Assembly: GCA_036149055.1 (NCBI GenBank)
Contig: JAYZQJ010000243.1
Coordinates: 1-37,940, forward strand
From: Myxococcota bacterium
GTDB taxonomy: Bacteria > Myxococcota_A > Polyangia > Polyangiales > Sandaracinaceae
Direction of reading: 5' to 3'
DNA length: 37,940 bases
Position numbers and translations under genes: made by a program
In this document: positions 36,289 through 37,940 of the stretch, one piece after another
Position numbering within the stretch: position 1 is the stretch's first letter
How the letters are laid out: the number at the start of each line of letters is the position of its first letter
Notes under the pieces: model-generated
Seen by the model: the letters and a program-made list of their open reading frames with translations, nothing else
Database searches by the model: none
Told to the model about the DNA's origin: nothing

Positions 36289-37311
36289 ATGCGCGCGCTG
36301 CCGCTCCTGCTCCTCCTCGCCTTCGCGGCGCCGGCCGCGGCACAGGAGATCGGGCCCCAGGCGTGCGGCCAGGAGGCCTCGAGCGCGGACTACGGTGAGG
36401 TGCGCGTGGGGGCCGAGGTGGTCCCGCAGCGTCACCGCTTCGTCGGCGGCGACCCCAACTGGGACGGCCGCATGGGGCGCTACCTCGGCATGCCGGGGCG
36501 GGTCACCCGGCTCAGCGGGGTGGACGACCAGGGCTGCCCCGGGGTGCGGATCGACGTCGACGGAGGGCGCTGGTTCTGGCGCCTGCGCGACCTGAACGTC
36601 GGCGTGGCGCGGCCCGGCGCGGAGCTGCCCGAGCGCGAGGCGTCTCCGATCCCGCAGCAGTGCGGCCGGACCGACGCGACGGTGGAGTACGGACCGCTGC
36701 AGCTCGGCACGGTCGTGGTCCTCGGCCGGCACCGCCCGATCGGCGGCGACGACAACTGGACGCCGCAGATGACCGCCTTCGTGGGGCGCACGGCGCGAGT
36801 GGTGGAGCTCGCGGGGACCGACGACACCGGCTGCGCGGGCGTGCACGTCGACGTGGACGGCCGGCAATGGTTCTGGCGCATCCGCGACCTCTCGCTCTCG
36901 GACGACGAGGGCGGCGCGGTGGCCTATCGCCCCGGCATGGCGAGCGATCACGGCCGCCCGATCGCGCCCGAGGAGCCGCCCGACGCGCGCGTGCCGCAGC
37001 AGTGCGGCATGACCGACGAGACCGCGGACTTCGGCCCGGTCACGGTCGGCAGCGAGGTCGTCGTCGGCCGTCACCGCAGCGTGATGGGCGAGGCGAACTG
37101 GGTGGAGGAGATGGAGGCCTTCGTGGGCCGCACCGCGCGCGTCACCGAGCTGGTCGGCGTCGACGAGCAGGGCTGCGCGCTGGTCCACGTGGACGCGGAC
37201 AACGGCGAGTGGTTCTGGCGCCTCCGCGACATGCGCCTCCCCGAGGAGAGCCCCGCTCCGCCGACGCCGAGCGAGCCCGAGACGCCCGCGCCCACCCCTG
37301 GCACACCGTGA
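36289..37311 (+). CDS. Secreted protein with three tandem ~95-aa repeats (SH3/KOW-like)
   Basis: Signal peptide; 3x PQ.CG.......G....G..VV..RHR...G..NW...M....G...RV..L.G.D..GC..V.VD.D...WFWR.RD. Confidence 0.85.
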   Translation: MRALPLLLLLAFAAPAAAQEIGPQACGQEASSADYGEVRVGAEVVPQRHRFVGGDPNWDGRMGRYLGMPGRVTRLSGVDDQGCPGVRIDVDGGRWFWRLRDLNVGVARPGAELPEREASPIPQQCGRTDATVEYGPLQLGTVVVLGRHRPIGGDDNWTPQMTAFVGRTARVVELAGTDDTGCAGVHVDVDGRQWFWRIRDLSLSDDEGGAVAYRPGMASDHGRPIAPEEPPDARVPQQCGMTDETADFGPVTVGSEVVVGRHRSVMGEANWVEEMEAFVGRTARVTELVGVDEQGCALVHVDADNGEWFWRLRDMRLPEESPAPPTPSEPETPAPTPGTP

Positions 37312-37345
37312 CACGGGCGGAGAGACGGCGGCCCCCGATCAACGG

Positions 37346-37362
37346 CTGGCACGCCGCCTGCT
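37346..37362 (+). promoter_or_regulatory. Sigma54 (-24/-12) promoter
   Basis: CTGGCACG-CCGC-CTGCT against consensus YTGGCACG-N4-TTGCW; correct GG-N10-GC spacing; intergenic. Confidence 0.75.
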
Positions 37363-37370
37363 CGGTGAAT

Positions 37371-37462
37371 GGCTGTTCCACATCCATCCATTCACACATC
37401 CTCCATCAGATGCGCAGCCCCCCGAGTCGGCCCATCCACCCGACTCGGGGGGCGTTTCTGTT
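37371..37462 (+). ncRNA. Candidate ~90-nt sigma54-dependent small RNA
   Basis: Bounded by the sigma54 promoter and an intrinsic terminator; C/A-rich body with repeated CATCC; no SD-led ORF inside. Confidence 0.55.
37417..37462 (+). terminator. Intrinsic terminator
   Basis: Perfect 14-bp stem GCCCCCCGAGTCGG / CCGACTCGGGGGGC, 9-nt loop CCCATCCAC, followed by GTTTCTGTT. Confidence 0.8.
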
Positions 37463-37494
37463 GGGGGCAATGGCCACCGGCCATGCCCCCAACC

Positions 37495-37610: not shown

Positions 37611-37940
37611 TGGAGTTCCCTCGATTCCGTGGATGTCGGTGACCCAGCGCTTGTCCGGTTCGCTGGCCGTGAAGTCGCGGCCGAGCTGATTGTCGGCCAC
37701 GGGATGAGCCTGGTCTCGCAGAGTCGTGCGGCGGAAACGCTTCGGAGCTCGGGCCTGGAGGCCGAGGTCGCGCATGACCCGCTCCACGCGCCGCTTGCCT
37801 ACACGCCAGCCCTCGGTCCTCAGCGCCTCGAGGATCCGCGGGCTCCCGTAAGTCCCCCGGCTCGCCTTGAAGAGGCGCGTGACCGCTGCTCGTAGCTTCT
37901 GCTCGCTCTTGTGCCTGTCGCTCGGAGGCCGCTTGAGGAA
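37611..37940 (-). mobile_element. IS3-family element, internally deleted; continues beyond the right edge
   Basis: OrfB fragment FLKRPPS...SRGTYGSPRI...GKRRVERVMRDLGL.A...RTT...VADNQLGRDF...PDKRWVTDI, then immediately an IS3-type terminal IR TGGAGTTCCCTCGATTCCGTGGA (37611-37633). Confidence 0.88.
37632..37940 (-). pseudogene. Truncated IS3 OrfB transposase (HTH region plus only the first DDE Asp)
   Basis: Homology stops at WVTDI; the rest of the integrase core is absent. Confidence 0.85.

Follow-up and report, generated by a model that had tools for sequence, protein, structure and literature searches.

Near the end of a contig from a member of the Sandaracinaceae (JAYZQJ010000243.1 of assembly GCA_036149055.1; the window analysed here is the whole stretch of 37,940 nt) a sequence resembling a sigma54 promoter is followed by a G-poor tract with repeated CATCC motifs and by a perfect hairpin. 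This arrangement raises the question of whether the unit is a gene for an RNA in its own right and, if so, what such an RNA might do. The analysis described here indicates that the unit is very probably an uncatalogued RNA gene with some function, encoded on the plus strand, and that its RNA is likely to be about 85 nt long with a 3' end near 37460. No description of a small RNA (sRNA) of the Sandaracinaceae was found in the literature in open-licence sources, and a literature search combining CAUCC with Shine-Dalgarno terms found no description of this RNA.

Layout of the unit

The features of the locus are as follows.

36289 to 37311, plus strand: upstream gene, used as synteny anchor and not part of the RNA; 340 amino acids with a signal-peptide-like N-terminus and three internal repeats
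37299 to 37314, plus strand: direct repeat TGGCAC-N4-TGACAC with a period of 10, candidate enhancer (bEBP site) whose end lies 32 nt before the -24 box
37347 to 37362, plus strand: predicted sigma54 -24/-12 promoter
37375 to 37379, plus strand: probable +1 (G37375) and conserved 5' end GUUCC
37375 to 37408, plus strand: single-stranded body with one G and repeated CCAU units (complement of AUGG)
37397 to 37405, plus strand: core CAUCCUCCA including the anti-Shine-Dalgarno CCUCC (37400-37404); predicted seed
37417 to 37453, plus strand: 14-bp GC hairpin with a 9-nt loop; 3' end or terminator stem
37454 to 37462, plus strand: U-rich tail

The promoter boxes (TGGCACG at 37347-37353 and CTGCT at 37358-37362), the CATCC copies at 37381, 37385, 37397 and 37433, the CCTCC and the perfect 14-bp stem (37417-37430 with 37440-37453, followed by the tail GTTTCTGTT) were all found as a preliminary description of the locus had given them. 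Its remark that the tract is G-poor for this genome, which has a GC content of 73%, was also borne out, since among 115 sigma54-like boxes this one has the fewest G residues downstream (4 in 40 nt). The fold of the unit has a z score of -5.5, with none of 200 shuffles equally stable, and four CATCC motifs were attained by only 8 of 2000 dinucleotide shuffles. Clusters of at least four CATCC per 60 nt occur five times in the whole genome, three of them inside one repeat on contig C266. An Rfam search of the locus returned no credible family, the four matches (E 1.3-7.8) all lying far under their gathering scores, and the homolog loci likewise gave no credible Rfam match.

Beyond the unit, between 37460 and 37940, the window contains a second hairpin (37460-37494), short tandem repeats of 6 and 18 bp and, on the minus strand, an IS3-type transposase fragment (HTH_21) truncated both near 37623 and by the end of the contig. 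The 18-bp repeat is also found at 1-170 of the window and is expanded in a same-species variant of the locus (L228). None of these elements is conserved together with the unit.

Conservation and distribution

The 340-residue product of the upstream gene has no Pfam family over the cut-off and no usable Atlas match. It was matched in 31 of the 32 genomes of the family, and 30 ortholog loci were inspected. The unit lies behind eight of them and is missing from the other 22, giving eight carriers among the 32 family genomes, in five genera: G000 (the source genome) and G001, which are the two genomes of their genus, together with G004, G005, G008, G014, G017 and G018. The unpublished genome G023 enters these tallies as a non-carrier only. 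Only G001 was found by BLAST in 60 genomes of relatives (75%, E = 7.5e-18), and the further carriers were found through synteny. The unit was not found in G010 or G022, which belong to genera containing carriers; in G022 half of the upstream repeat is still present. A ninth distinct sequence comes from a metagenome contig (L229), and the variant L228 differs within the unit solely at two spacer bases between the -12 box and +1. The identical two changes were seen in one metatranscriptome contig. The named carriers are Sandaracinaceae; among the GTDB records with the unit, which were left out of the homolog count, three are labelled Sandaracinaceae, one Polyangia and one Proteobacteria.

Across the nine distinct sequences, which are kin so that the counts are not independent, the promoter, the spacing to +1, the C/A-rich body and the hairpin are conserved together, and the stem shows compensatory changes. 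No open reading frame is conserved on either the plus or the minus strand among the nine homologs, and a coding function on either strand was rejected. These results uphold the earlier proposal of an unannotated small RNA gene of the sigma54 type. The distance from the upstream gene to the promoter varies from about 35 to more than 250 nt, and the downstream gene is not conserved, being convergent in G001, G004, G014 and G018 and replaced by repeats and the IS fragment in the source genome.

A covariance model trained on the eight homologs (R1) recovered the same eight in the 32 family genomes, the next best match scoring 27.9 bits (E = 0.076), and under stricter filters it gave no match outside the family in 151 genomes of the order. 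Among the genomes searched the unit is therefore confined to part of one family. Looser searches gave nothing comparable. In a GTDB scan for the promoter with CATCCATCC (120 loci), those screened for G-poor bodies had the look of mRNA leaders or of chance matches, and none had the architecture of the unit. Eight matches to the promoter plus GTTCC outside the family lacked body and hairpin, three non-myxobacterial matches and two of four metagenome matches had neither the upstream gene nor the unit architecture, and a search for core plus stem returned noise, including a match in G009 without a promoter.

Two observations were made alongside these searches. In genus g8 (L146, L147, L149) a hydrophobic open reading frame of 34-35 amino acids is inserted behind the anchor gene and ahead of the promoter. 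Duplex energies between the start region of this frame and the cognate RNA are -23.8 (G008) and -19.2 (G017) kcal/mol, and G022 keeps the frame with the RNA absent. A different short sigma54-promoted unit, with a 5' hairpin, CUCUCCAUCUCCAU and a terminator, is present in G002 (L359, C68:117514-117633, plus strand). It is a weak match to R1 (E = 0.076), is not syntenic and has no upstream repeat, and is possibly an analogous sRNA.

Seven RNA sequencing runs from two studies contain the stretch. Four were examined, and assembled contigs, which may contain DNA, cover the unit in three of them, ending at 37414, 37454 and 37521.

Promoter and transcription start

Eight sequences share TGGCACG at -24, TG in the -12 box and GTTCC without any change while the spacers vary freely, and RpoN is encoded in the source genome. 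GTTCC starts 28 nt from the first T of the -24 box in eight of the nine sequences; G004 has GTAC one base later. A genome-wide calibration of this spacing comes from 196 sigma54-like boxes in G000, after which 33 ATGs fall at offset 28 and 22 at offset 29, with none at 24-27. Of these 55 ATGs, 49 share the frame of a called gene, and 35 of the 49 genes have signal peptides and 18 have lipoboxes. They look like leaderless sigma54 mRNAs whose start codons mark +1 and which form a large class for envelope proteins. A literature search found no paper that combines all the terms of such an abundance of leaderless sigma54 mRNAs.

Because GUUCC of the unit sits at offset 28, where leaderless ATGs pile up throughout the genome, its +1 can be placed at G37375, which is the likely start as judged from this spacing. 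The preliminary description had been right about the sigma54 box and had put the start near 37371-37374; given that no ATG falls at 24-27, 37375 is the more likely position. The ATG at 37369 (offset 22) lies upstream of +1, as had been stated, and would thus be untranscribed. An alternative fold in which GGCUG pairs with CAGCC (37415-37419) had also been suggested and is not borne out: its pairing probability is at most 0.002 even if it is transcribed, and the greater part of GGCUG precedes +1.

Structure of the RNA

In the homologs the RNA consists of a body of 25-36 nt with one to three G residues, a short linker and one hairpin. The body is predicted to be unpaired, with a mean probability of 0.96 over 37375-37405, and is unpaired in all of the homologs that were folded; for the core the unpaired probability is 0.84-1.0. 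The core CAUCCUCCA is present in eight of the nine sequences, G018 having CAUCCCCCA. CCAT occurs 25 times in the nine bodies as against a shuffle mean of 3.6 and a maximum of 12 in 5000 shuffles, a comparison in which the kinship of the sequences has to be kept in mind. The CAUCC copy in the terminator loop, which had been counted with the others, is confined to G000 and G001, and no general role is supported for it.

Between G000 and G001, 4 of the 14 base pairs of the stem have changed on both sides and all are still paired. In the six other homologs, for which the structure was set by hand, 95% of stem cells pair, three pairs show double changes, eight never vary, and the covariation score is attained in 3 of 500 shuffles. 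The stem sequence CCCCGGUCG does not vary in six homologs. The U-tails are less uniform, with five T in 8 nt in G000, six in G001 and zero to three in five others, so that a strong tail is found in two of the seven scored. Since the tails are weak in five homologs, intrinsic termination does not appear to be general, and the RNA is possibly trimmed back to the hairpin. An automated terminator scan reported none at the locus, because the 9-nt loop exceeds the limit of 3-8 nt used by the scan.

An upstream direct repeat common to lipoprotein genes

A conserved element that the preliminary description did not mention lies upstream of the promoter. In the window it overlaps the stop codon of the upstream gene, while in most homologs it is intergenic, and all eight homologs have GGCAC-N4-TGRCAC with a gap of 32-35 nt to the -24 box. 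A matrix trained on seven copies other than its own was scanned against 179 boxes in G000 and gave six matches at gaps of 30-36, one of them being the unit itself, as against two over the other 188 gaps. The combined pattern of repeat and promoter was found in 22 of 151 genomes of the order, and a reversed control gave no match. About 16 of 20 repeat loci other than the sRNA begin with a signal-peptide protein, nearly all with a lipobox-like Cys as judged by eye, and 6 of 14 scanned loci encode PF09826 beta-propellers. The loci with repeat and promoter across the order (L256-L272, L277, L278, L280) have the repeat 30-35 nt before the box and mostly precede lipoprotein genes. Within G000, lipobox genes lie behind five of the seven repeat-bearing promoters as against 32 of 154 others (p = 0.007; lipoboxes were called by regular expression). 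Three of the seven have leaders.

Bacterial enhancer binding proteins (bEBPs) of M. xanthus are described as binding tandem repeats (PMC9765219), and the direct repeat is for this reason regarded as a probable enhancer. We infer that it is an enhancer-like element common to the unit and to sigma54 lipoprotein genes across the order. The motif could not be named: the Nla28 half-site given in the available part of the same source is different, and GGCAC is absent from the main text of PMC3333781. The genome has 64 strong matches to sigma54 activators, and an activator adjoins only 1 of 25 enhancer loci. The first candidate among the activators is C125:9699-11024, which is oriented divergently from a promoter with the repeat. 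An FHA-type activator within the window was considered as a linked regulator and rejected, as it lies 21 kb from the unit and other carriers show no such linkage.

Proposed action of the RNA

The reading that we favour, with some confidence, is that the unit encodes a chaperone-independent sRNA that would pair broadly with ribosome-binding regions and lower translation as part of an envelope-lipoprotein regulon. A bEBP bound at the direct repeat would activate the unit together with the sigma54 lipoprotein genes that bear the same repeat at the same spacing, and transcription would run from 37375 and end after the hairpin. The unstructured 5' part would then act without Hfq; the partner of CCUCC would be the GGAGG of the Shine-Dalgarno sequence, and a CAU lying 4-10 nt to its 5' side would pair with AUG. 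By such pairing the RNA would copy the contacts of 16S rRNA and of initiator tRNA, and it would have many targets of moderate affinity instead of a single partner.

Several lines of evidence are consistent with this proposal. The reverse complement of the body reads as GGAGG followed by AUGs. In each of the eight bodies examined one or more CAUs lie 4-10 nt to the 5' side of the core, and on its 3' side the eight together have only one non-overlapping CAU, a count that excludes the overlapping CCUCCAU of three homologs. In the genome itself the spacing from GGAGG to the start codon peaks at 4-8 nt (8029 genes, from our own gene calls). The G000 body pairs better with start regions than with coding windows, by 2.0 kcal/mol, and exceeds all 25 shuffles (0.6-1.96), and all eight homologs fall on the same side (z -0.6 to -4.0), with the real value reached by none of 14 shuffles in five homologs, by one in two and by four in one (G018). 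Part of this preference follows from the method, since every start window contains AUG or GUG and Shine-Dalgarno motifs are rewarded in the gene calls. Perfect complements of at least 8 nt are found in 154 start regions and in 78 coding windows, of 8004. The preliminary description had left open a choice between pairing with GGAUG or GGAGG initiation regions and titration of a protein; the anti-Shine-Dalgarno core, the side on which the CAUs lie and the start-region preference favour pairing, and titration keeps a lower standing.

No standout target emerged among the 8004 start regions, in which the longest perfect complement is 11 nt. Among start regions bearing the complement of the core, lipoproteins are mildly over-represented (15 of 62 as against 12%, p = 0.01). 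The acpP gene, which ranks 54th of 8004 in G000 and was the one candidate compared across genomes, was considered as a co-evolved target and rejected, because in six other carriers its cognate duplex is equalled or beaten by 11-26 of 32 acpP regions from non-carriers. Hfq and ProQ were not found in the source genome, which is 96% complete. Chaperone-free pairing through C-rich segments has precedents in 6C RNA (PMC6486639) and in NfeR1 (PMC10746234), as far as the available text of these sources goes.

A more far-reaching version, which we think quite doubtful, is that the RNA might be a generic mimic of the initiation complex, an anti-Shine-Dalgarno joined to a ladder of CAU anticodon look-alikes, that would broadly damp translation led by Shine-Dalgarno sequences while sigma54 activates leaderless envelope and lipoprotein mRNAs that the RNA cannot bind. 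The 5' ends of the 49 leaderless-looking sigma54 genes do pair more weakly, at a mean of -4.8 kcal/mol as against -14.1 for starts led by GGAGG, a gap that is expected by construction. The presence of leaders behind three of the seven repeat-bearing promoters counts against this version.

Alternative explanations

A real sigma54 sRNA could also work as a decoy, its CCAU/AUCC repeats titrating an RNA-binding protein such as an RRM protein in the manner of CsrB or CrcZ. The decoys CsrB, RsmY, RsmZ and CrcZ carry a short repeated motif, and CrcZ is sigma54-driven. The strong over-representation of the repeat unit, the variation in number and spacing of its copies among homologs and the want of a specific mRNA target would all suit a decoy, as would the four strong RRM proteins and one weak match encoded in the genome, the invariance of the stem in six homologs and a similar C/A-rich single-stranded element at a hairpin that is conserved between the cistrons of another operon in five genomes (contig C23). 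CsrB and Rsm decoys, however, need multiple GGA in loops, and the plus-strand body, which has one to three G in the homologs, contains neither GGA nor AANAANAA, which excludes CsrA as the ligand; the csrA gene is a fusion in a flagellar cluster, and no Hfq was found. The invariant core complements the Shine-Dalgarno sequence, its CAUs lie on the side that fits pairing with AUG, the repeats are not shown in loops and the RNA is short. We consider a decoy unlikely, though it is the main rival. It is improbable, too, that the unit is simply the 3' end of the upstream mRNA, that is, a C-rich and G-poor tract for Rho loading or processing with a stabilising hairpin, perhaps released as a 3'UTR fragment. 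Such a reading would account for the constant position behind the same gene, for RNA contigs that continue beyond the gene into the unit (two of the three ending at or in the hairpin, at 37414 and 37454), for the poor U-tails and for the existence of other G-poor tracts with hairpins behind stop codons in this genome. It leaves unexplained the invariant -24 box, the fixed 28-nt offset of GUUCC and the enhancer at 32-35 nt, and it sits poorly with a gene-to-promoter distance that varies so widely and even accommodates the small g8 reading frame, and with the 22 ortholog loci that have no unit.

The opposite strand also has points in its favour, as the reverse complement of the body reads like a textbook ribosome-binding site and ATG (GGAGG-N8-ATG) opening an antisense reading frame of 106 codons (37391-37071), and is rich in GGAUG, which might make it a CsrA sponge in a genome that encodes a CsrA domain. 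The predicted peptides differ in frame and sequence across all nine homologs, however, and promoter, enhancer and U-tail all indicate the plus strand. CsrA prefers spaced GGA sites in hairpin loops, whereas the GGAs here are 3-5 nt apart and outside such loops, and a function of the minus strand seems very improbable. A 5' leader or attenuator, with the anti-Shine-Dalgarno acting in cis on a downstream gene, is the reading to which we attach hardly any weight. A same-strand gene does follow in G017, and CT-rich anti-Shine-Dalgarno insulation at sigma54 promoters has reportedly been described in one study, but no downstream gene is conserved among the carriers. The pairing sRNA set out above keeps our preference.

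Comparison with known regulatory RNAs

The unit has the traits of a trans-acting base-pairing sRNA, namely its own promoter and 3' hairpin, conservation, the lack of coding potential and a conserved single-stranded seed (CAUCCUCCA in eight of nine). Its regulatory logic recalls the sRNAs of envelope regulons, MicA, RybB and MicL with sigmaE and GlmY with QseF and sigma54, whose class of promoter is common to envelope-protein genes and which need Hfq or RapZ; the likeness is one of logic only, and there is no sequence relation.

A closer parallel is Pxr (RF01812) of Myxococcus xanthus and relatives, for which a sigma54 promoter, an upstream enhancer, a C-rich unpaired segment and an Hfq-less host are described, TRIC-seq having placed the pairing of Pxr and of MXnc1 near Shine-Dalgarno sequences (PMC5568312, 10.1101/2025.09.11.675593, PMC5684412). 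The unit, likewise myxobacterial, has a sigma54 promoter at the level of sequence, a putative enhancer, a C-rich segment predicted to be unpaired and a host in which no Hfq was found. In the available text of the same sources Pxr is reported from the Cystobacterineae lineage only. The Pxr covariance model gave no match at the locus (E up to 10), at the eight homolog loci or genome-wide (E up to 1 for both). Pxr has three stem-loops, whereas all homologs of the unit have a single 3' hairpin and a linear 5' seed, and Pxr lies directly behind the gene for its activator pxrR/nla19, whereas the unit lies behind a gene for a secreted-type protein. With no model match, one hairpin and no adjacent activator of the pxrR/nla19 type, identity with Pxr was rejected.

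The alpha-rhizobial NfeR1/alpha-r14 and AbcR sRNAs are described as using repeated, redundant anti-Shine-Dalgarno motifs to block translation of many mRNAs (PMC10746234). NfeR1/alpha-r14 carries CCUCCUCCC in three hairpin loops, whereas the unit has one CCUCC and a CCAU ladder at an unstructured 5' end; NfeR1 is driven by LsrB, with NtrC as its repressor, and the unit has no Rfam match. The 6C RNA of Mycobacterium and other high-GC Gram-positives is described as pairing with multiple mRNAs through C-rich single-stranded regions without a chaperone (PMC6486639), but its poly-C loops are borne on stems, it belongs to another phylum and has no sigma54 promoter, and Rfam does not link the unit to it. 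The sRNA thus appears to resemble Pxr, NfeR1 and 6C in operation and is a member of none of these families. What would set it apart is the linear anti-Shine-Dalgarno with a ladder of start-codon complements and the putative enhancer held in common with lipoprotein genes.

Related elements in this and other genomes

The intercistronic element mentioned above is G-free and C/A-rich, lies beside or inside a GC hairpin (L231, on the minus strand near 27228 of C23 in G000, and L232, L233, L234 and L236), reads CAUCCUCCACAC in G000 and G001 and is conserved in 5 of 25 inspected loci. It is possibly an mRNA-derived sibling RNA or a protein-binding site. G-poor tracts followed by strong hairpins also occur in G000 at C114:+4355 (after lon), C274:-9612, C57:+9192 and C149:-8391, three of them directly behind stop codons, and these four are candidates for 3'UTR-derived or stand-alone sRNAs. 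Near the ends of four contigs (C119, C127, C161, C269) a repeated G-free motif beginning ATTCCTCCACGCCTCCCACC is likely to be the end of a multicopy element. The CsrA domain of this genome (L186:1057-1656, on C132) is fused to a C-terminal region, which presumably resembles FliW, and adjoins a flgL-like gene. Outside the myxobacteria, in two loci (L222, L223), GUUCCCAUCCUCCA stands behind a sigma54 box and is followed after 40-50 nt by a G-rich GGAGG(A/G)UG tract, a potential partner for pairing in cis.

Significance

Riboregulation in myxobacteria is known mainly from Pxr. The unit adds a defined RNA with a calibrated start, a candidate enhancer common to lipoprotein genes across the order and a simple predicted seed. 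The many sigma54 mRNAs that look leaderless form a lead of their own. If the CAU ladder does pair with start codons, a high-GC bacterium without Hfq would gain both affinity and selectivity from a Shine-Dalgarno complement; and should the doubtful reading as a mimic of the initiation complex prove true, it would mean that an sRNA switches between two classes of translation initiation.
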